A stretch of 64,000 nt of DNA from Acidobacteriota bacterium (GTDB taxonomy: Bacteria > Acidobacteriota > Blastocatellia > Pyrinomonadales > Pyrinomonadaceae). The notes under the pieces are model-generated. The model was not told the origin of the DNA. It saw only the letters and a program-made list of their open reading frames with translations, and made no database searches. Numbering within the stretch: the stretch's first letter is position 1; each line of letters opens with the position of its first letter. The DNA is taken from NCBI GenBank assembly GCA_032229975.1, contig JAVXVG010000017.1, positions 87,557-151,556 on the forward strand, written 5' to 3'. A program made the position numbers and the translations under genes. This document shows positions 6,656-14,890 of this stretch, piece by piece.

Positions 6656-6729
6656 GCACCCGTAGCTCAGTTGGATAGAGCATCTGACTTCGAATCAGAG
6701 GGCCGCAGGTTCGAGTCCTGCCGGGTGCA
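6656..6729 (+). tRNA. tRNA-Arg(TCG), canonical-looking
   Basis: Acceptor GCACCCG/CGGGTGC, D-arm GCTCAGTTGGATAGAGC, anticodon loop CTTCGAA, T-arm GCAGGTTCGAGTCCTGC. Confidence 0.9.
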
Positions 6730-6854: not shown

Positions 6855-9800
6855 TCAGCAGGTCTCTTCCGCGAGCGAGCGCACGACGACTCGTTGACCA
6901 CCGATCTCGCCTTCCCACAAAACCGTCGCCGCGCATTCGTGCCTCAAATATTTCCAGAGCGCGCTGCGTTCGTACTCGTCGAGGTCTGCGGGGATGAGAT
7001 CGAAGACGGCGCGCGAGGCGACGACGACGAGCTTGCGTCGCGGTCGCGAGACGGCCACCGTCAAACGACGCGGCTCAAGCAAGAAACCGCTCTCGGCTTG
7101 CGCGAACTCTCGATCTGAGACCGTCGCGGAGACGATGATGAGATCGCGCTCGCCGCCTTGAAAACGCTCGACCGTGTCGATTGATTCGGCGAGTTCCGGC
7201 AGGCGCGTTTGCAGCAGAGACTTCTGCGCGCGGTGCGGCACAACGACGCCGATGCCGCGTCGCGCGTCGAGTCCGAGTTGATGTGTCGCGACGCGCGCGA
7301 TCTCTGTCACGAGTGTCGCCTCGTATTCGTTCGACTGCTGCGACCCCGACTCATCGTGCTCGACGACGACGAGGGCCTGTTCGGGCCTGAAGACCGCCGC
7401 GAGCCACCCCGTCAAACCTTCGGGCGCGTTGAGCCGCAGTCGATTCCCGGAGCGGAAGTTGACGCCGTCTTGCGCATAGACGTGGCGGCGCAGGAAGCCT
7501 GCGATCTCCGTGGGGATGCGAAAAGATTCGTCGAGCGCGTCGCTGCGAAAGCCCGTCTCGCGCAAGGTTTCGAAGATCGAGAGATGTGGGCGCGCGTGTT
7601 TCATGTCGCGCCGGCTCTCCTCGTCCCATGCGTGCGCGAGTATCGGCGGCATCTGTCGATGATCGCCGATGGCGACGAACTGGCCGTCGTCGCGCAAGAA
7701 CGCGGCGGCTGTCAGAGCCTCCGCGATGCCCATCTGCGAAGCTTCATCAACGACGACGAGATCGAAAAACTTCTCCGACCAATCGACCGCGCGACCGCGC
7801 GCCGCGCCCTGCTTGATCAACTTGTAGAGTCCACCCGGCGTGCCGCCGACGACGAGCAAAGGCTCTGAGAGCAGCGCGTCCCACTGCTCAGCCGCGCTCG
7901 ACTCCTCACCACCATCAGCGAATATTTTTTCCACGCCTTCGGTTGCCTGCTCTCCCGCATCCGCGCACACCTTCGCGATCTTCAAAGTCGCGAGCGGCGC
8001 GAGACGCGTGTCGATGTTTGCGCCGTCTTGCGTCGCAGCGTCTCGCAACTCACGCGCGCGGCGTGCGATGCTCGCGAGCGCGATCTGCGTGGCGGCGTGA
8101 GTCCTTGCGCAGACGGCGATGCGGAAAGGACGTGCGGGCGTTGCGAGTGCGAGGGCGCGCACGAGGGCCATGAAGCCGAGCGTGTGGCTCTTGCCCGTGC
8201 CGGGTGGCCCCTGTAGGACGAGGACGCGATCCGCGACCGCTTCGCCGATGACGCGGCGTTGCGCGTCTGTGAGTCCGCGTGGCTGTTGCGTGCGCGATGC
8301 AAGGTCGGCGATCTCTACAGCGTCGCGCAGGCGTCGCGGGCGGATCGGTCGCGGACGCTTCGCTTCTTTCGCGTCGCAGAGCCAGCGATAGAGATTGTTG
8401 GTCGCACTGTTGCGGCAGGCGTCGAGAAACTTGTCGGCGTTGAGATCGTCCGCCATCTCGTCAATAGTGAAGAACGCGCCCGACTCCGGCTTGTGCCGGA
8501 CGTGCGAGAAGCGGAAGTCAGAATTCTTGAACGTCATCGAGAGCAGGCGTAGAGAGAGACGGCCCGCGTCGAACTCTTCGACGATGCCAAGCCGACCGCG
8601 CAACAGTTTCCACGCAGGAAGCGCGCTACCACCTTCACCGGCCAGAGGATTGAGCACGACCCAGTCGCCCGCACGAAACTTCGCGACCGGAGCGTGTGCA
8701 TTCGCACTCATCTCATCGAAGATTTTGCTCGCCGAGTCTTCAGCGTCGTTCGTATTGTGCGCGTCACCAGCGTCGAACGTGAACGTTGCGCGCTCGCCTC
8801 CGGCTGACTTTTCGTAAGCGTCGCAGCGCAGGATGAGCGTGCGGCCCGTTTGCGCGCGCTGTTCGGGCGGGAGCGCGAGATGCAGGAGGAGTGTCTGCAC
8901 CTTCGCATGATGTTCGAGGTAGAGAAAATCTTCTAGCGCGCGACTTAAGGGAACGGACGCGGGATCGATCTCCGTCTCGTCGAGGCGCGAGAGCGTGAGC
9001 GGTCGTTTCTCGACGTGGCGATTCTTCTGCTTGAAACTCTCTTCAATGTGGCGCAGCGCACGGCAGCGCAGCAAGGCGAGCGCGCGCACGTCTTCCATCG
9101 TCACGCCGTTGAAGTTGCTCAGGTAGTTGCGCTCCTGCTCCGTCGGCTCGGCTTCTCCACCCAACCGGCCCCACGCGGCGTAGGCGTATTCGAGCGGAAT
9201 CTCCGTGCCGAAGCGCGCTGACGACTCGACGACGTGCGCGCCGCCTTCTTTGTCGGCGGGCGCAAAGAGTCCGGTCTGCGTGTCGCGCGCGAAGGAACGT
9301 GTGGCATCGAAGACGCGTGCGCGAAACTTCGCAGATGTGTCGTGCGCCGGGTCGTCCCAGCGAAAGCCAAGCTCGCGGGCCACCTCGTAGAGATTCTGGC
9401 AGACGTGCGCGAGGTTCATGCGCTCGCAGACTTCGTCGGCGAGGAAAGAGATCATCGACTGCGTGAGCGCAGGATGCGACGTGAGTAGATCGTAGAACGC
9501 AGGAAGCGCGCATAGCGTCTCGAAGTGGCGCGCGAGCGCGTCGAGCAGCGAGCGTTGACTGCGGCGGTCGAAGAGATAGATGTGAACGGGTGCTTCCCTT
9601 CCGTCAGCCGCGCGCGCGATCTGAGGCAGGAGGCGTGTGATCCATTCGATGAGCAGAGCGCGCTCCGCATCTGTGTCGGGCGGAGAGTCGGTCGATTCTA
9701 TAACTTCAGCCGAGCCGCAGGGGCCCGCGACGAGCGCGGACAGAAGATAGACGCGATCTTCGAGATGATCGCGCTGTGCGTCGATGAAGACTTTAACGAG

Positions 9801-10988
9801 GTTCGGGTAGGTCGCATCGTCGGGCAACGATCCCCACTCGGAGCCGTAGAGGAAGCGTCGCGCTTCGACCGACGTGTCGAAGCGGCGCAGCGCGGCGCGC
9901 GCACGCTGAACGAGCACGGGCAGTCGGCGCGCGAGCACGGGCCGCGCGCCGATCTTTTGCGCGTCCGTCTCACGACCGGGCGCGGTTGTTAAAGTGTGGC
10001 CGGAATAGTTCAACAGGCCCGCGAGTGAGCTGAGCGTCGCGAAGCCTTCGTCGAGGAGCGCGCTCTTTTCATTCGAGGTGAGGGTCGGGACGAGCGAGAG
10101 GTCTTCGCGCTCTGCGGCGCGGACGAAGCAGAGCGAGTTGTAGGGACAGCCGTCGCAATGCGAGCCGAGATGAAACGCAGCCGCGTCGGGCATCACACGT
10201 GCGGCGCGAGAAACGTCCGAGTCATTTGCCGAGACGAGCTGCGCGATCTCGTCGAGATAGAGTGAGAGATCGAACTTGACGAACTCGTCGGGCCCGATCC
10301 GATGCGCGCTCGCACGCGCACCGGGATCGGCTGCCGCGTCGCGCGCCTCCTGACCTTCAATCGACGCACGCCCTTCGCTAGTCTCTTGTTCAATGCGGGT
10401 CGTGTTCGTCTCTTCCGTCTCAGACTTTCGCGAGAGCACCGCGCCATCGATTGATGTCACGTTGAGGCCCGCTTGTCGAACGGCGTCGAGCAACAGACGC
10501 GCGTAGAAGGCCACTTGCAGGCGAAAGCCTACGGTCTCGCGGCGGCTCGCCTTGATATCGAGAACCGTGAGTGAGACATCATTGCCTTCGCGTTCGACTT
10601 GAATAAGATCGGCGTAGCCTTCACACGACCAGCCGCCGATCAAACCTTCGAGTCGTGGTTGATAGTAGAAGCTGCGCCCGTCCTGTTGTTCACCGAGCGC
10701 GACGATAAAGGCCGCAGCGGACGTGCCGCGCAGATCGCGCACGCGCTCACGCGCGCCGAGCGCATCGACGATCTCGCGCTCGAACGACTGGCCCGCGCCG
10801 GAGAGCAAAGGCGAGAGCGCATCGAAGGGGACACGGTAGCGCGCGGCGAGCGACTTCGCCTCTGACGGGAAGAGTACGAAACGCAGATATTGCTCGCAGC
10901 GATTGCGCTGCACGTACTGCGCGAGCCGTTGCGCGCTGAGCGTGCGCTCGGTCTTGAAGCTCTGCGCGGAATCGGAGGCGTGAGTCAT
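6855..10988 (-). CDS. fusion protein: Cas4/Dna2-like Fe-S PD-(D/E)XK nuclease, central RNase-H-like region and Upf1-like SF1B helicase
   Basis: 1377 aa. N-terminus: C31 plus C278-x2-C281-x5-C287, D127, D144-I-K146 and QVAFY. C-terminus: Walker A GPPGTGKSHT (about aa 927), VVVDEASQM, GDHRQMPP, FQGGERDLIIVS and RRLTVAVSRPR. Confidence 0.85.
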   Translation of the reverse strand: MTHASDSAQSFKTERTLSAQRLAQYVQRNRCEQYLRFVLFPSEAKSLAARYRVPFDALSPLLSGAGQSFEREIVDALGARERVRDLRGTSAAAFIVALGEQQDGRSFYYQPRLEGLIGGWSCEGYADLIQVEREGNDVSLTVLDIKASRRETVGFRLQVAFYARLLLDAVRQAGLNVTSIDGAVLSRKSETEETNTTRIEQETSEGRASIEGQEARDAAADPGARASAHRIGPDEFVKFDLSLYLDEIAQLVSANDSDVSRAARVMPDAAAFHLGSHCDGCPYNSLCFVRAAEREDLSLVPTLTSNEKSALLDEGFATLSSLAGLLNYSGHTLTTAPGRETDAQKIGARPVLARRLPVLVQRARAALRRFDTSVEARRFLYGSEWGSLPDDATYPNLVKVFIDAQRDHLEDRVYLLSALVAGPCGSAEVIESTDSPPDTDAERALLIEWITRLLPQIARAADGREAPVHIYLFDRRSQRSLLDALARHFETLCALPAFYDLLTSHPALTQSMISFLADEVCERMNLAHVCQNLYEVARELGFRWDDPAHDTSAKFRARVFDATRSFARDTQTGLFAPADKEGGAHVVESSARFGTEIPLEYAYAAWGRLGGEAEPTEQERNYLSNFNGVTMEDVRALALLRCRALRHIEESFKQKNRHVEKRPLTLSRLDETEIDPASVPLSRALEDFLYLEHHAKVQTLLLHLALPPEQRAQTGRTLILRCDAYEKSAGGERATFTFDAGDAHNTNDAEDSASKIFDEMSANAHAPVAKFRAGDWVVLNPLAGEGGSALPAWKLLRGRLGIVEEFDAGRLSLRLLSMTFKNSDFRFSHVRHKPESGAFFTIDEMADDLNADKFLDACRNSATNNLYRWLCDAKEAKRPRPIRPRRLRDAVEIADLASRTQQPRGLTDAQRRVIGEAVADRVLVLQGPPGTGKSHTLGFMALVRALALATPARPFRIAVCARTHAATQIALASIARRARELRDAATQDGANIDTRLAPLATLKIAKVCADAGEQATEGVEKIFADGGEESSAAEQWDALLSEPLLVVGGTPGGLYKLIKQGAARGRAVDWSEKFFDLVVVDEASQMGIAEALTAAAFLRDDGQFVAIGDHRQMPPILAHAWDEESRRDMKHARPHLSIFETLRETGFRSDALDESFRIPTEIAGFLRRHVYAQDGVNFRSGNRLRLNAPEGLTGWLAAVFRPEQALVVVEHDESGSQQSNEYEATLVTEIARVATHQLGLDARRGIGVVVPHRAQKSLLQTRLPELAESIDTVERFQGGERDLIIVSATVSDREFAQAESGFLLEPRRLTVAVSRPRRKLVVVASRAVFDLIPADLDEYERSALWKYLRHECAATVLWEGEIGGQRVVVRSLAEETC

Positions 10989-12667: not shown

Positions 12668-12754
12668 GCAGACGTGGCTGAGCGGCAAAGGCGGCTGACT
12701 GTAAATCAGTTTGTCACTTAGGTGACTTCGGAGGTTCGAGTCCTCTCGTCTGCA
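12668..12754 (+). tRNA. tRNA-Tyr(GTA), class II
   Basis: Acceptor GCAGACG/CGTCTGC, anticodon loop CTGTAAA, long variable arm GTCAC-TTAG-GTGAC, T-arm GGAGGTTCGAGTCCTCT. Confidence 0.85.
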
Positions 12755-12877
12755 TCGAGACATTTGAGGGGCCTGATGTAACAGCAGCACATCGATCTCC
12801 AAGATCGTCGCTGAAGGGATCGAGCCTCGCGTGCTCCTATCGAATTTTATATCGACGCGTCGAAGCGTCGTTTGCGC

Positions 12878-12961
12878 GGAAGGTTCGGCACGTGGCAAGC
12901 CAAGCGGTCTTGAAAATCGTGAGAGGTAACGCTCTGGCGGGTTCGACTCCCGCACCTTCCT
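12878..12961 (+). tRNA. tRNA-Ser(TGA)-like, class II, divergent
   Basis: Acceptor GGAAGGT/ACCTTCC, 3-bp D-stem GGC/GCC, anticodon loop CTTGAAA on a weak stem with two G-U pairs, variable arm AGAG/CTCT, T-arm GCGGGTTCGACTCCCGC. The discriminator is T rather than G. Confidence 0.6.
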
Positions 12962-12965
12962 TATT

Positions 12966-13017
12966 CCGACTGCTGCGCTACTTCATCGTTCATCGTTCCG
13001 CCTTCATCGTTTCATTC
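12966..13017. repeat. Hairpin repeat family B (GATGAAC/GATGAAG-type), right half only
   Basis: CGACTGC...CTACTTCATCGTTCATCGTTCCGCCTTCATCGTTT matches the loop and right arm of the copies at 15871 and 17615. The left arm is absent, and the element abuts the 3' end of tRNA-Ser. Confidence 0.6.
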
Positions 13018-13092
13018 GAACCCGTAGCTCAGTGGATCAAGAGCGCGACTCTGCGAAGGTCGAGGTCGCAGGTTCGAGTCCTGCCGGGTTCA
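13018..13092 (+). tRNA. tRNA-Arg(GCG)
   Basis: Acceptor GAACCCG/CGGGTTC, D-arm GCTCAGTGGATCAAGAGC, anticodon loop CTGCGAA, T-arm GCAGGTTCGAGTCCTGC. Confidence 0.85.
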
Positions 13093-13099
13093 TCCGCAC

Positions 13100-13170
13100 G
13101 CCGACGTAGCCCAACGGTAGAGGGCCGCGCTGTGCACGCGGAAGCTGGGGGTTCGACTCCCTTTGATCCA
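13100..13170 (+). tRNA. tRNA-His(GTG)-like, probably a pseudo-tRNA
   Basis: The anticodon arm is perfect (CCGCG-CTGTGCA-CGCGG) and the T-arm is GGGGGTTCGACTCCCTT. The 5' GCCGACG has no complementary 3' strand (TGATCCA), and the D-stem/position-26 region is one nucleotide short. Confidence 0.4.
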
Positions 13171-13199
13171 TCTCGCTCACACGACATCAAACTTTTCTT

Positions 13200-13271
13200 G
13201 GAACGGTGGCTGAGAGGTCAGGCACTGGATTGTCGATCCAGACGATGCGAGTTCGAGCCTCGTCCGTTCCG
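13200..13271 (+). tRNA. tRNA-Asp(GTC) with a class-II-type D-arm
   Basis: Acceptor GGAACGG/CCGTTCC, discriminator G, D-arm GCTGAGAGGTCAGGC, anticodon loop TTGTCGA, 5-nt variable loop, T-arm GCGAGTTCGAGCCTCGT. Confidence 0.8.
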
Positions 13272-13281
13272 TCATGCACGC

Positions 13282-13355
13282 GCCTTCGTAGCTCAAACGC
13301 GCAGAGCGGCTGGCCCTTAACCAGTCAGGTCTGAGTTCAAATCTCAGCGAAGGCA
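13282..13355 (+). tRNA. tRNA-Lys(CTT), non-canonical (C33, no GG in the D-loop)
   Basis: Acceptor GCCTTCG/CGAAGGC, D-loop AAACGCGCA, anticodon arm GCTGG-CCCTTAA-CCAGT, T-arm CTGAGTTCAAATCTCAG. Confidence 0.75.
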
Positions 13356-13366
13356 TTTCCCGTTTC

Positions 13367-13440
13367 GACGGAGTGTAGCCTAGAGGCTTCGAGTCGCTTG
13401 ATCCGAGATCAAGACGGCGTGGATTCCTCTCGACTCCGAT
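13367..13440 (+). other. tRNA-sized structured spacer occupying a tRNA slot (not foldable as a canonical tRNA)
   Basis: Acceptor-like pairing CGGAGT/ACTCCG (13369-13374 / 13433-13438). TA at positions 8-9. Perfect palindrome CTTGATC-CGA-GATCAAG (13397-13413). No T-loop. Confidence 0.3.
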
Positions 13441-13452
13441 CACTTCACATTC

Positions 13453-13530
13453 GCATCGTTGGTCCAGCCCGGTTGAAGACGCGGCGTTGCCAGCGCCGAG
13501 ACCTGAGTTCGAATCTCAGACGATGCACCA
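13453..13530 (+). tRNA. tRNA-Gly(GCC) with a class-II-type D-arm and encoded CCA
   Basis: Acceptor GCATCGT/ACGATGC, D-region GTCCAGCCCGGTTGAAGAC, anticodon arm CGGCG-TTGCCAG-CGCCG, T-arm CTGAGTTCGAATCTCAG, then A-CCA (13527-13530). Confidence 0.8.
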
Positions 13531-13540
13531 ACACACACGC

Positions 13541-13616
13541 GGGCGGTTAGCTCAAAACTGGATAGAGCACCACGCTTCGAACGTGGACGTTGCGGGTTCG
13601 AGTCCTGCACCGCCCT
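13541..13616 (+). tRNA. tRNA-Arg(TCG), second divergent copy
   Basis: Acceptor GGGCGGT/ACCGCCC, D-arm GCTCAAAACTGGATAGAGC, anticodon arm CCACG-CTTCGAA-CGTGG, T-arm GCGGGTTCGAGTCCTGC. Confidence 0.85.
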
Positions 13617-13628
13617 CTCATTCTTCGC

Positions 13629-13703
13629 GCGACCGAAACTCAAACGGATACGAGTGCGAGTTTCCCAAACTCGATGCTGCGGGTTCGAGTCCCGCCGGTC
13701 GCT
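13629..13703 (+). tRNA. tRNA-Gly(CCC)
   Basis: Acceptor GCGACCG/CGGTCGC, discriminator T, anticodon arm CGAGT-TTCCCAA-ACTCG, T-arm GCGGGTTCGAGTCCCGC. Confidence 0.85.
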
Positions 13704-13715
13704 TCTCACCTTCAT

Positions 13716-13788
13716 GCACGCGTAGCCAAGCGGCGAAGGCGCAGGTCTGCAAAACCTGTCAACGTCGGTTCGAATCCGACCGCGTGCT
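13716..13788 (+). tRNA. tRNA-Cys(GCA)
   Basis: Acceptor GCACGCG/CGCGTGC, discriminator T, anticodon arm CAGGT-CTGCAAA-ACCTG, T-arm GTCGGTTCGAATCCGAC. Confidence 0.85.
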
Positions 13789-13944
13789 TCTTCGGCGACG
13801 AACGCGAAGATTCATTCTTCAACGTCGTCGCGCGTACAAGGCTTGCGAGCGGCGGCGCACCCCGCGTCGAGCCTCACCACCGCTCGCACTTCCCTTCTCA
13901 TTCAAGACGGAAGGCAACACTGACGAAAGGAGGTTTTACGAACC

Positions 13945-14514
13945 ATGTCGCTCAACGGTCGGGTTCTCTTGCTCAACCAAACTTACGAGCCGCTCGGCAC
14001 GGTCGGCGTGGCCCGCGCGATTGTAATGCTCTTCAAGAACACCGTCTCGGTCGAAGAGTGGGACGGCGACCGCGTCCTTCGCACGCCGCGCACAGAGTAT
14101 CCCGTGCCCTCTGTCATGCGCCGGCGCACCTACGTCAACGTGCGCCGACGCCGCGATGCGACGGGCTCGAAGCGCGTGAGAATTTACATACGCGACGGGT
14201 TTCGCTGCCAGTATTGCGGCGAGCGCAAGAACCCTGTGGAGCTAACGCTCGATCACATTCTCCCGCGCTCGCGCGGCGGCAACCATCAACCGATCAACGT
14301 CGTCACCGCGTGCGTCGCCTGCAACCAGCGCAAGGGCAATCGCACGCCCGGGGAGGCCCGTATGCCTCTGCTCACCACGCAGATGGCCCTGCACGCGCAG
14401 CTCGAACGCGTCGTGCTCTGCCACTACGCCGAGGCGCGGCCGGAGTGGAGAAAGTACATCTTCACTGAAGACGTGAACGACGATTCGCGTGCGAAGCGAT
14501 CACGGACGGCTTGA
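13945..14514 (+). CDS. HNH endonuclease (COG1403-type) embedded in the tRNA array
   Basis: 189 aa. Strong RBS AAAGGAGG 8 nt upstream. Motifs CQYCG...LTLDHILPRSRGGNH...VTACVACNQRKGNRTP (HNH with two CxxC pairs). Confidence 0.85.
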   Translation: MSLNGRVLLLNQTYEPLGTVGVARAIVMLFKNTVSVEEWDGDRVLRTPRTEYPVPSVMRRRTYVNVRRRRDATGSKRVRIYIRDGFRCQYCGERKNPVELTLDHILPRSRGGNHQPINVVTACVACNQRKGNRTPGEARMPLLTTQMALHAQLERVVLCHYAEARPEWRKYIFTEDVNDDSRAKRSRTA

Positions 14515-14544
14515 ATGAGGGCCGGCGGCCGTCGGCCCTCATTC
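14513..14544 (+). other. GC-rich stem-loop at the HNH stop codon (no U-tract)
   Basis: GAATGAGGGCCG / CGGCCCTCATTC, a 12-bp stem with an 8-nt loop. tRNA-Val follows 13 nt later. Confidence 0.45.
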
Positions 14545-14556
14545 ATCCCTCAAACC

Positions 14557-14629
14557 CGCCGGTTAACTCAACTGGAAGAGTGCCTGTCCTACAAACAGGA
14601 AGTTGAAGGTTCAAATCCTTCACCGGCGA
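14557..14629 (+). tRNA. tRNA-Val(TAC), C33 variant
   Basis: Acceptor CGCCGGT/ACCGGCG, D-arm ACTCAACTGGAAGAGT, anticodon arm CCTGT-CCTACAA-ACAGG, T-arm GAAGGTTCAAATCCTTC. Confidence 0.8.
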
Positions 14630-14640
14630 TCAACTTTATC

Positions 14641-14725
14641 GGGGCGCACGGCTCGTCGCGCGCAGAACGGCAGACTGCGCGTGATCGTGGAGCGAGAGAC
14701 TTGCTGGCGTTGGTCTCGCGCCCCG
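14641..14725 (+). ncRNA. tRNA-like structured element (acceptor-like stem, no T-loop or anticodon loop)
   Basis: 7-bp stem GGGGCGC/GCGCCCC (14641-14647 / 14718-14724). GCTC...GAGC helix encloses a 9-bp hairpin CGCGCGCAG-AACGGCAGA-CTGCGCGTG. The 3' hairpin GAGAC-(12 nt)-GTCTC abuts the acceptor strand. Confidence 0.35.
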
Positions 14726-14738
14726 ACCAAAGCTCTCG

Positions 14739-14812
14739 CGCGGAGTAGCTCAGTTAGGCAGAGCACACGTCTCATAAATGTGAGCGCGCGGGTTCGAGTC
14801 CCGCCTCCGCGA
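14739..14812 (+). tRNA. tRNA-Met(CAT), elongator type or possibly Ile2
   Basis: Acceptor CGCGGAG/CTCCGCG with 1-72 paired. The anticodon stem CACGT/ATGTG lacks the initiator GGG/CCC pairs. Loop CTCATAA, T-arm GCGGGTTCGAGTCCCGC. Confidence 0.85.
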
Positions 14813-14815
14813 TTC

Positions 14816-14890
14816 GGGTCGGTAGCTTAACTCGGCAAAAGCGACAGTCCTGCAAACTGTTAGATGTGAGTTCGAATCTCACCCGATCCA
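14816..14890 (+). tRNA. tRNA-Ala(TGC), C33 variant
   Basis: Acceptor GGGTCGG/CCGATCC contains the G3:U70 Ala identity pair. Anticodon arm ACAGT-CCTGCAA-ACTGT, T-arm GTGAGTTCGAATCTCAC. Confidence 0.85.

Follow-up and report, generated by a model that had tools for sequence, protein, structure and literature searches.

Can an elongator transfer RNA (tRNA) do without the U at position 33? This base is treated as near-invariant in elongator tRNAs and is the basis of the anticodon U-turn. The question is raised by a stretch of 64,000 nucleotides (nt) from a bacterium of the family Pyrinomonadaceae (Acidobacteriota; contig JAVXVG010000017.1, positions 87,557 to 151,556), called the window below, which carries a reduced long tRNA array. 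Three genes of this array, for tRNA-Lys(CUU), tRNA-Val(UAC) and tRNA-Ala(UGC), have C33 instead. A sequence-only reading had held that three such genes in one cluster were unlikely to result from random decay, and had suggested altered decoding, resistance to an anticodon-loop nuclease or modification enzyme, or a non-translational role. Based on a comparison with homologous arrays, we conclude that, on balance, the array C33 tRNAs are probably auxiliary tRNAs that would tolerate C33 when the first codon pair is a strong one, with fixation of C33 in one Val lineage.

The three genes are located as follows:

13282..13355, + strand: tRNA-Lys(CUU), loop CCCUUAA, C33 at 13315, 59.1 bits (ARAGORN and Rfam tRNA model)
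14557..14629, + strand: tRNA-Val(UAC), loop CCUACAA, C33 at 14589, 64.6 bits (ARAGORN and Rfam tRNA model)
14816..14890, + strand: tRNA-Ala(UGC), loop CCUGCAA, C33 at 14850, G3:U70 pair, 62.8 bits (ARAGORN and Rfam tRNA model)

The Rfam tRNA covariance model (gathering score 29) and ARAGORN, a second and separate caller, both place C33 in the loops CCCTTAA (Lys), CCTACAA (Val) and CCTGCAA (Ala), as had been read from the DNA. In the alignment to the Rfam model, each loop position of the three genes has the top posterior probability. Folding at minimum energy without constraints gives the cloverleaf for Val and Ala; the fold obtained for Lys retains the anticodon hairpin. Neither the covariance model nor these folds provide another loop register with U33 for any of the three, and no alternative with U33 scores better. 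Perfect 5-bp anticodon stems had also been claimed. This holds for Val (CCUGU/ACAGG) and Ala (ACAGU/ACUGU), with five Watson-Crick pairs each, and was slightly overstated for Lys (GCUGG/CCAGU), which has four Watson-Crick pairs and one G27-U43 wobble. The G3:U70 pair that had been pointed out in Ala is present and invariant in 41/41 distinct homologous Ala-UGC genes, and the discriminator is A73 in Ala, Val and Lys. The remaining nine array tRNAs, as well as two window tRNAs outside the array, have U33.

Of the hallmarks of an elongator tRNA, the three genes lack U33 with its U-turn and retain the cloverleaf (stem covariation), the elbow contacts (covariation at 19:56 and 18:55) and the identity elements (A73 and G3:U70). 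Broken stems, lost invariant bases or a sub-threshold score, as expected of pseudogenes, are absent from these genes, which have no stem mismatches and canonical T-loops, and are found in a Pro and a His remnant of the same array. With the background frequency of C33 in elongator tRNAs taken as at most 1% (established knowledge, partly from PMC5041475), the chance of three or more C33 genes among 12 is about 2e-4. At the frequency of the array family, 12.8%, three in 12 is ordinary (P about 0.19). The anomaly therefore lies in the array family and not in this single window.

This family was followed through the HNH endonuclease gene (189 amino acids, aa) embedded in the array. Homologues with 70-88% identity occur in at least 80 species-level genomes, nearly all of which are labelled Pyrinomonadaceae, Blastocatellia or Acidobacteriota. 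The comparison comprised 80 homologous loci (L001 to L080), mostly metagenome-assembled genomes (MAGs), and a set of metagenome contigs (L113 to L192). The HNH gene occupies a fixed position in the arrays of the 80 loci. It is preceded by the order Tyr Trp Ser Ser Arg Gln Arg Leu (four genes) Glu His Glu Asp Lys Pro Gly Arg Gly (Thr) Cys, and followed by Phe (Asn) Val Thr Arg Met Ala Thr Met Asn Lys Ile (Val) (Ile) Gln. The homologous arrays contain 20-36 or more tRNA genes per contig and cover all 20 amino acids. Genes for Ile-UAU, uncommon in bacteria, are present in related arrays.

The 80 loci provide 1388 array tRNAs, of which 1207 have T at position 33, 178 (12.8%) have C, 2 have G and 1 has A; in the same genes, conservation exceeds 99.5% at each of G53, T54, A58 and C61. 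All 18 tRNAs outside the arrays at these loci have U33. By isoacceptor, C33 is found in Val-GAC (7/7), Ile-GAU (32/42), Val-UAC (33/50), Ser-CGA (12/19), Pro-UGG (29/52), Ala-UGC (24/48) and Glu-UUC (10/45), and in no gene for Met (0/77), Cys (0/64), Phe (0/58), Lys-CUU (0/53, or 0/52 for array genes only), Gln-UUG (0/48) or Leu-UAG (0/47). Parsimony changes, summed over 31 isoacceptor families on a neighbour-joining tree of the HNH protein, number 53 at position 33, 0-6 at positions 53, 54, 58 and 61 and about 100 at variable-loop sites. Position 33 thus changes at a rate near that of positions 37, 38 and 60, about half that of the variable loop and at least ten times that of positions 53, 54, 58 and 61. 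At least 17 tight clusters (identity of at least 93%) across isoacceptors are polymorphic at this site. Frequent switching between U and C in Ala is partly an artefact, as three paralogous Ala types replace one another between arrays. Judged from these counts, position 33 is best described as a moderately constrained pyrimidine site in the array family and not as an invariant U.

Mutation pressure towards a high content of guanine and cytosine (GC) was rejected as the main cause of the change from U to C. The C33 fraction does not follow locus GC (Spearman 0.03), C33 also occurs in arrays with a GC of 0.37-0.46, and other invariant U or A positions show no drift to C or G.

C33 extends beyond the acidobacterial loci. 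An 18-nt bait, the Val-UAC anticodon arm with either pyrimidine at position 33, was used on metagenomes; it samples the extended array family and not all arrays. Most of what it returned were tRNA arrays of many gene orders. With the bait gene left out and well-formed anticodon stems required, C33 was counted in 93/650 array tRNAs (14.3%) versus 1/42 non-array tRNAs, with no dependence on GC. The dozens of arrays recovered in this way have quite different gene orders and a GC from 0.37 to 0.69, which suggests that related array tRNAs form a very widespread pool in soil metagenomes. Distant HNH homologues, with 30-43% identity, are found within or next to tRNA arrays of Nostoc and Mycobacterium plasmids and of tRNA-rich phages, including an acidobacterial jumbo phage. 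In viral contigs with such homologues, C33 is present in 12/233 tRNAs, concentrated in Val-GAC, Val-UAC, Glu and Ala, and these genes have no close sequence similarity to their acidobacterial counterparts. C33 is limited to Tyr in the Mycobacterium plasmid array and to Ile-GAU in cyanophage S-CBWM1, and is absent from the Nostoc plasmid array (0/20) and the Anabaena trn operon (0/24).

Next to its distribution over isoacceptors, C33 follows the identity of the third anticodon base, position 36, in both sets of arrays:

C36: C33 in 25.2% of tRNAs of Pyrinomonadaceae arrays, 28.1% of metagenomic arrays
G36: C33 in 11.7% of tRNAs of Pyrinomonadaceae arrays, 13.5% of metagenomic arrays
U36: C33 in 10.6% of tRNAs of Pyrinomonadaceae arrays, 6.3% of metagenomic arrays
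A36: C33 in 4.2% of tRNAs of Pyrinomonadaceae arrays, 4.3% of metagenomic arrays

The gradient persists on unique sequences (p 7e-16 for Pyrinomonadaceae, 2e-10 for metagenomic arrays) and is also seen when inferred events per class are counted instead of genes. tRNAs with C36 read codons starting with G, with a strong first pair, while those with A36 or U36 read codons starting with U or A. According to Grosjean and Westhof (PMC5041475), the latter codons need extra stabilisation by the tRNA, namely i6A37 or t6A37 and a U33-based loop. C33 is an anti-determinant of t6A37 synthesis by the TsaBCDE enzymes of E. coli (PMC8887486), and a U33C change in an essential yeast tRNA is viable, with a phenotype (PMC3664417). 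Val-UAC and Ala-UGC belong to the permissive class (C36) and Lys-CUU to a restrictive one.

The dependence on base 36 points to a constraint from decoding, and so to use in translation, and argues against a purely non-translational role. Such a role, as decoys for toxin RNases or as amino-acid donors for the synthesis of cell wall, lipids or peptides, seems quite improbable. Sponge or other non-canonical functions were raised in a study of long arrays (PMC8421152), and a weakened U-turn would lessen competition on the ribosome with ordinary tRNAs. Against this, a base-36 gradient together with strictly conserved anticodons and identity elements is the expected outcome of selection on decoding. 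In addition, no amino acid is missing from the arrays, and no gene for a tRNA-dependent transferase is found in the array.

Another possibility might be that C33 is edited to U or pseudouridine after transcription, leaving the mature tRNAs canonical. C-to-U or C-to-pseudouridine editing of loop and core positions of tRNAs exists in other systems, and the near absence of purines at position 33 (3/1388), where C does replace U, would agree with it. Under this explanation one would expect neither the base-36 gradient nor the fact that many isoacceptors of these arrays have U33 throughout. The arrays also have no linked deaminase gene, and we consider editing very improbable.

The C33 genes could also be decaying or silent pseudogenes of a dispensable array, with C33 as part of the damage. 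The state of the window array lends this some weight. In comparison with loci L001 to L003, the block from Gln to Glu has been deleted with a His remnant left behind, Pro-UGG has become a pseudogene and the Thr-Asn-Lys-Ile-Gln block after Ala is lost; the array flanks are still collinear between the window and these loci. By this alignment the window array is evidently shrunken and eroding, with most of its genes lost. The Pro pseudogene and the His remnant mark recent erosion:

13105..13174, + strand: tRNA-His(GUG) remnant, 26.7 bits (below the gathering score), 79.7% identity to the His-GTG gene of L001
13369..13439, + strand: tRNA-Pro(UGG) pseudogene with a T-loop deletion and a mutated anticodon loop, now UCCGAGA, collinear with the Pro-TGG genes of L001 and L002

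The Pro pseudogene is called by neither ARAGORN nor the covariance model. The array is also vestigial or absent in about 11 loci that still have the HNH gene. In these loci (L037, L038, L057, L060, L063, L066, L070, L071, L075, L076 and L079), the HNH protein is kept at 70-76% identity with the array gone or reduced to one or two genes. This retention without the array suggests that array homing may not be the only role of the HNH protein.

As a general explanation, decay is improbable. The three genes score 59-65 bits with intact stems and T-loops, purines at position 33 are nearly absent, and the other invariant positions are conserved throughout the family. Stem defects per gene are equal in C33 and U33 tRNAs (1.07 versus 1.08); together with the tertiary covariation, this led us to reject a general loss of constraint. 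The alignment of Val-UAC (46 distinct genes) has 99% of its cells paired, with compensatory double changes in 10/21 pairs and a covariation score reached by 0/500 shuffles. Ala-UGC falls into three sequence types that differ in their acceptor, anticodon and T stems and are all fully paired. At the elbow, genes with C56 have GG in the D-loop in 1222/1311 cases and genes with U56 have GA in 71/81, indicating a switch from G19:C56 to A19:U56. Likewise, the Tyr-GUA genes with G55 (T-loop UGCGAGU) have an A18-type D-loop, GAGCAGCAAA, in 27/27 cases.

The history of the three alleles separates Lys from the other two. The Val allele of the window lies in a clade of mixed state, and shares C33 and its D-loop with a near relative (L004), while L001 to L003 have U33. 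The Ala allele is of type A, and genes of the same type have C33 in L002, L003, L006 and L019 and U33 in L001 and L004. These comparisons show that the Val C33 allele is inherited, and the Ala C33 allele inherited as well but polymorphic. The Lys gene of the window equals the ancestral sequence kept in L005, L006 and L009, save for U33C and a permitted G57A. Outside the window, C33 is absent from Lys-CUU in the related arrays (none of 52-53) and in other arrays (0/26); the Lys anticodon arm used as metagenome bait gave no matches, and C33 Lys was found nowhere else. Its C33 is therefore a recent substitution, private to the window genome. The D-loop of Lys at 13295-13303 reads AAACGCGCA, without G18G19; the GG is likewise missing in L001 and L003 and present in L005, L006 and L009.

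The claims of the sequence-only reading fare accordingly. Conservation of C33 in homologous arrays, which it had proposed to check, is found for Val and Ala and not for Lys. That C33 is no random decay stands for Val (33/50) and Ala (24/48), whose fold is kept by covariation and whose C33 is common to several species. The treatment of all three as one phenomenon fails, as the Lys change is private, falls in the anticodon class that most avoids C33 and sits in an array that is mostly lost. Its private C33 and the array loss make relaxed constraint a live explanation for Lys. We regard pseudogene decay as excluded for Val and Ala; for Lys, whose class is otherwise never C33 and whose D-loop lacks GG, it is plausible, albeit with rather less than even chances.

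For Val, retention of C33 can be followed further. In one Val-UAC clade, C33 is present in 28/28 species, in which the tRNA is 94% identical as compared to 57% at the 4-fold sites of the HNH gene, where neutral change is close to saturation. Retention of C in 28/28 at a neutral pyrimidine site (neutral C/(C+T) of 0.64) has a probability of about 3e-6, an approximate value as the species are not fully independent. These patterns show that the C33 tRNAs are maintained as tRNAs and that C33 itself is retained in this one Val lineage. In Pro, Ala, Ile-GAU and Ser-CGA, the C fraction is 0.50-0.76, close to the neutral pyrimidine ratio of 0.64-0.70, and U and C look nearly interchangeable.

The fixation in one Val lineage, beyond the neutral expectation, is also the point where an adaptive explanation has to be weighed. 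Here C33 would make a tRNA a poor substrate for an anticodon-loop nuclease or modification enzyme that reads U33 or the U-turn, and the array would sustain translation under attack. Long arrays are stress-induced and some of their tRNAs are cleaved (PMC8421152), nuclease evasion through loop changes has been proposed for phage and array tRNAs (PMC10264068, PMC12803027), and the cleavage site of some nucleases is at positions 32/33 (PMC11724271). In many related arrays, a gene for the RNA ligase RtcB (392 aa, Pfam E 5e-121), a tRNA-repair enzyme, lies between Lys-CUU and Pro-UGG. It is inside the array at 7977-9155 in L040, at 2782-3960 in L058 and in at least 25 further related loci, and is missing from the window; RtcB matches occur in 39 loci overall, about a dozen more than have rtcB inside the array. 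This presence of rtcB inside at least 25 related arrays also favours the adaptive explanation, as do the recurrence of C33 in unrelated viral arrays, where tRNAs for Val, Glu and Ala have it, and the higher C33 fraction of arrays with rtcB (15.8% versus 11.0%, p 0.02 without correction for phylogeny).

On the other side, U33C is not known to block any published nuclease, and the yeast gamma-toxin cuts C33 substrates normally (PMC2275089). A candidate nuclease was not identified within the window, the near-neutral C fraction of Pro, Ala, Ile and Ser-CGA resembles drift, and the base-36 gradient fits decoding energetics and not any known toxin specificity. Taken together, we consider adaptation of this kind unlikely, though worth keeping in view. 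The same tentative standing applies to its fuller form, in which C33 would be selected within a damage-tolerance module of array, RtcB and HNH protein, and would shield certain decoders, above all Val but with it Ala, Glu, Gly and Asp (each with C36), from an enzyme that depends on U33 or a canonical U-turn. Decoding would then be kept since the strong G:C36 pair compensates.

Whether these tRNAs are auxiliary depends on what else the cell encodes. The array tRNA-Arg(UCG) has a dispersed counterpart in the window:

13541..13617, + strand: array copy of tRNA-Arg(UCG), U33, 59.5 bits, duplicating the dispersed gene
6656..6729, + strand: dispersed (housekeeping-type) tRNA-Arg(UCG), U33, 75.4 bits, used as comparator gene

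The two are 66% identical, and the dispersed gene is syntenic upstream of the array in L006, L009, L012, L021 and L022. Dispersed and divergent Ser-UGA and Lys-CUU genes lie beside related arrays, so that supernumerary genes are seen in related loci as well. Since the window array covers only 10 amino acids, the tRNAs for the rest must be encoded elsewhere. The array is probably a set of extra, divergent copies of tRNAs also encoded elsewhere in the cell, which in the window can be read directly for Arg-UCG.

The reading of C33 as a tolerated change in such an auxiliary set is the one we favour. The array genes are under real selection to work as tRNAs, and the C33 genes keep all other features of a working tRNA, with C33 inherited in Val and Ala and its frequency tracking base 36. 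The C33 tRNAs would be transcribed, charged and used as auxiliary decoders, with weaker selection on each gene than on the dispersed ones. With C33, the U-turn hydrogen bond from N3-H to phosphate 36 would be gone and a pyrimidine of the same shape kept. The cost might be small where a strong G:C36 pair anchors the codon-anticodon helix (Val GUN, Ala GCN). With A36 or U36, where the first pair is A-U and the tRNA relies on i6A37 or t6A37 and a pre-ordered loop, C33 would be selected against. C33 in Val-UAC and Ala-UGC would then be an old tolerated allele, actively retained in one Val lineage, and C33 in Lys-CUU a recent private change in an eroding array, most likely giving a weaker tRNA that escapes t6A37.

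Several points weigh against this account. The retention of C33 throughout the Val clade exceeds what mere tolerance would lead one to expect. Ile-GAU (U36) breaks the base-36 rule with C33 in 32 of its 42 genes, which are structurally poor (about three defects each). The Anabaena trn operon, the sole long array studied experimentally, has U33 in 24/24 genes; we rejected this array as experimental support for a function of C33, as no C33 tRNA occurs there. The parsimony counts depend on the HNH tree, and the gene counts are non-independent across related genomes and come mostly from MAGs or metagenome contigs. Finally, redundancy for the window genome is judged from a single window, which covers Arg-UCG and contains no dispersed Val-UAC, Ala-UGC or Lys-CUU.

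Whole-window annotation indicates a bacterial chromosome with a GC of about 62%, encoding SMC, RecQ, S9 and S46 peptidases, BNR/sortilin-type proteins and transporters. A phage or plasmid origin was rejected, the SMC, RecQ, peptidase and transporter genes being typical of a chromosome. Close phage relatives of the array were not found either: blastn against GenBank phages gave matches to single tRNAs only and no related element. ARAGORN identified 14 tRNA genes in the window, 12 of them on the + strand between 12668 and 14890, in agreement with the Rfam model. The array and its other parts are:

12668..14890, + strand: reduced long tRNA array with 12 intact tRNA genes, two tRNA remnants and an embedded HNH gene
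12668..12754, + strand: tRNA-Tyr(GUA), U33 (ARAGORN, covariance model)
12878..12961, + strand: tRNA-Ser(UGA), U33 (ARAGORN)
13018..13092, + strand: tRNA-Arg(GCG), U33 (ARAGORN, covariance model)
13199..13273, + strand: tRNA-Asp(GUC), U33 (ARAGORN, covariance model)
13453..13530, + strand: tRNA-Gly(GCC), U33, the sole array gene of the window with an encoded CCA
13629..13703, + strand: tRNA-Gly(CCC), U33 (ARAGORN, covariance model)
13716..13788, + strand: tRNA-Cys(GCA), U33 (ARAGORN, covariance model)
13945..14514, + strand: HNH endonuclease gene, 189 aa, between Cys-GCA and Val-TAC (Pfam HNH_5, 9e-17)
14630..14738, + strand: structured Val-Met spacer of 109 nt with an acceptor-like stem and an ACCA tail
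14739..14812, + strand: tRNA-Met(CAU), U33 (ARAGORN, covariance model)

Of the related array tRNA genes, 63-71% include the 3' CCA, as compared to 1/12 in the window (Gly-GCC). The Val-Met spacer is 86-88% identical in L001 to L004 and folds with a long closing stem at -52.7 kcal/mol (z -3.16). It has no match to the tRNA covariance model and may be a tRNA-like element or an old remnant. In the gap between Ser-UGA and Arg-GCG (12980-13018), a pyrimidine-rich short repeat of tcatcgt units matches several places in L002 on both strands. A scan of the array for consensus promoters and terminators gave nothing above the shuffled expectation.

Upstream of the array, at a distance of 1.7 kb, a 1377-aa protein (6855-10988, - strand) combines PD-(D/E)XK nuclease and superfamily 1 (SF1) helicase domains and matches the profiles of the defence helicases DpdJ and MkoA. 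This gene is present in just 12/80 loci, and the genes flanking the array in the window are common to only 12-14/80 loci. A scan for defence genes among the array neighbours gave generic helicase and HNH similarities only, and no mobility genes were seen near the window array.

The type of array is known. Long tRNA arrays (L-arrays), also called tRNA array units, are redundant tRNA sets with an HNH gene inside or adjacent and a linked rtcB (PMC8421152, PMC5966550, PMC6582537, PMC12803027); array units are described by Tran et al. 2016 (PMC4758250), Morgado & Vicente 2018 (PMC5966550) and Yano et al. 2026 (PMC12803027). The long array of Anabaena is induced by translational stress (PMC8421152). 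Silence during normal growth is a further mark of this type of array, as are a patchy occurrence and dispersal by horizontal transfer. The acidobacterial arrays resemble L-arrays in having dozens of closely spaced, non-periodic tRNA genes on the same strand for nearly all amino acids, probably redundant with dispersed genes, as well as an embedded HNH gene, a link to rtcB, Ile-UAU and frequent gene loss or pseudogenes. According to Tran et al. (2016), an L-array has at least 20 tRNAs at two or more per kb. The window array, with 12 in 2.2 kb, has the density and not the number. Its layout is that of an L-array, with all genes on the + strand, spacers mostly below 150 nt and an order without repeats, and it has the linked gene for a homing-type HNH endonuclease (Pfam HNH_5, with homologues in Nostoc, Mycobacterium and tRNA-rich phages). 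In contrast to L-arrays, the arrays studied here are chromosomal and widespread within one family, the HNH protein is 70-88% identical in at least 80 species, and the window copy has 12 genes. C33 makes up about 13% of their tRNAs as opposed to none in the Anabaena (24) and Nostoc plasmid (20) arrays. In a 2021 survey, Acidobacteria were among the phyla without long arrays (PMC8421152).

Other tRNAs offer partial parallels. The phage tRNAs proposed by van den Berg et al. 2023 (PMC10264068) to evade nucleases are likewise supernumerary, differ from those of the host in the anticodon loop and have an RNA-repair gene nearby. The sites in question there are those of VapC, PrrC and colicin, with position 33 unmentioned, whereas the pattern here tracks base 36 and no nuclease was identified. 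The eukaryotic cytoplasmic initiator tRNA-Met (PMC5041475, PMC8887486) is a natural functional C33 tRNA in which C33 interacts with the t6A37 machinery. It binds directly to the P site, in contrast to the bacterial elongators for Val, Ala and Lys described here. The tRNA-Ser(CAG) of Candida, with G33 (cited in PMC5041475), is an elongator that departs from U33 and is still in use, but it has a purine at position 33 and accompanies a codon reassignment, while purines are excluded here and the anticodons are standard.

In reviews (PMC5041475), the only tRNAs given without U33 are eukaryotic initiators and Candida tRNA-Ser, and C33 in array or phage tRNAs did not turn up in full-text literature searches. 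Arrays of this type are known; what appears to be new is the systematic C33, the way it depends on base 36 and the family-wide occurrence of such arrays in Acidobacteria. The arrays provide about 360 natural elongator tRNA genes with C33 that are under selection for the tRNA fold. Since C33 is frequent in tRNAs with C36 and infrequent in those with A36 or U36, these genes can serve as a natural experiment on the conditions under which a tRNA can do without the U-turn hydrogen bond, and the C33 array tRNAs are direct candidates for kinetic and structural studies and for work on t6A and i6A modification. They also extend long tRNA arrays with HNH and RtcB partners to the Acidobacteria, an abundant soil phylum. 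C33 also offers a concrete trait for asking what purpose such arrays serve, whether as a reserve of tRNAs when toxins or phages attack or as baggage that is tolerated.

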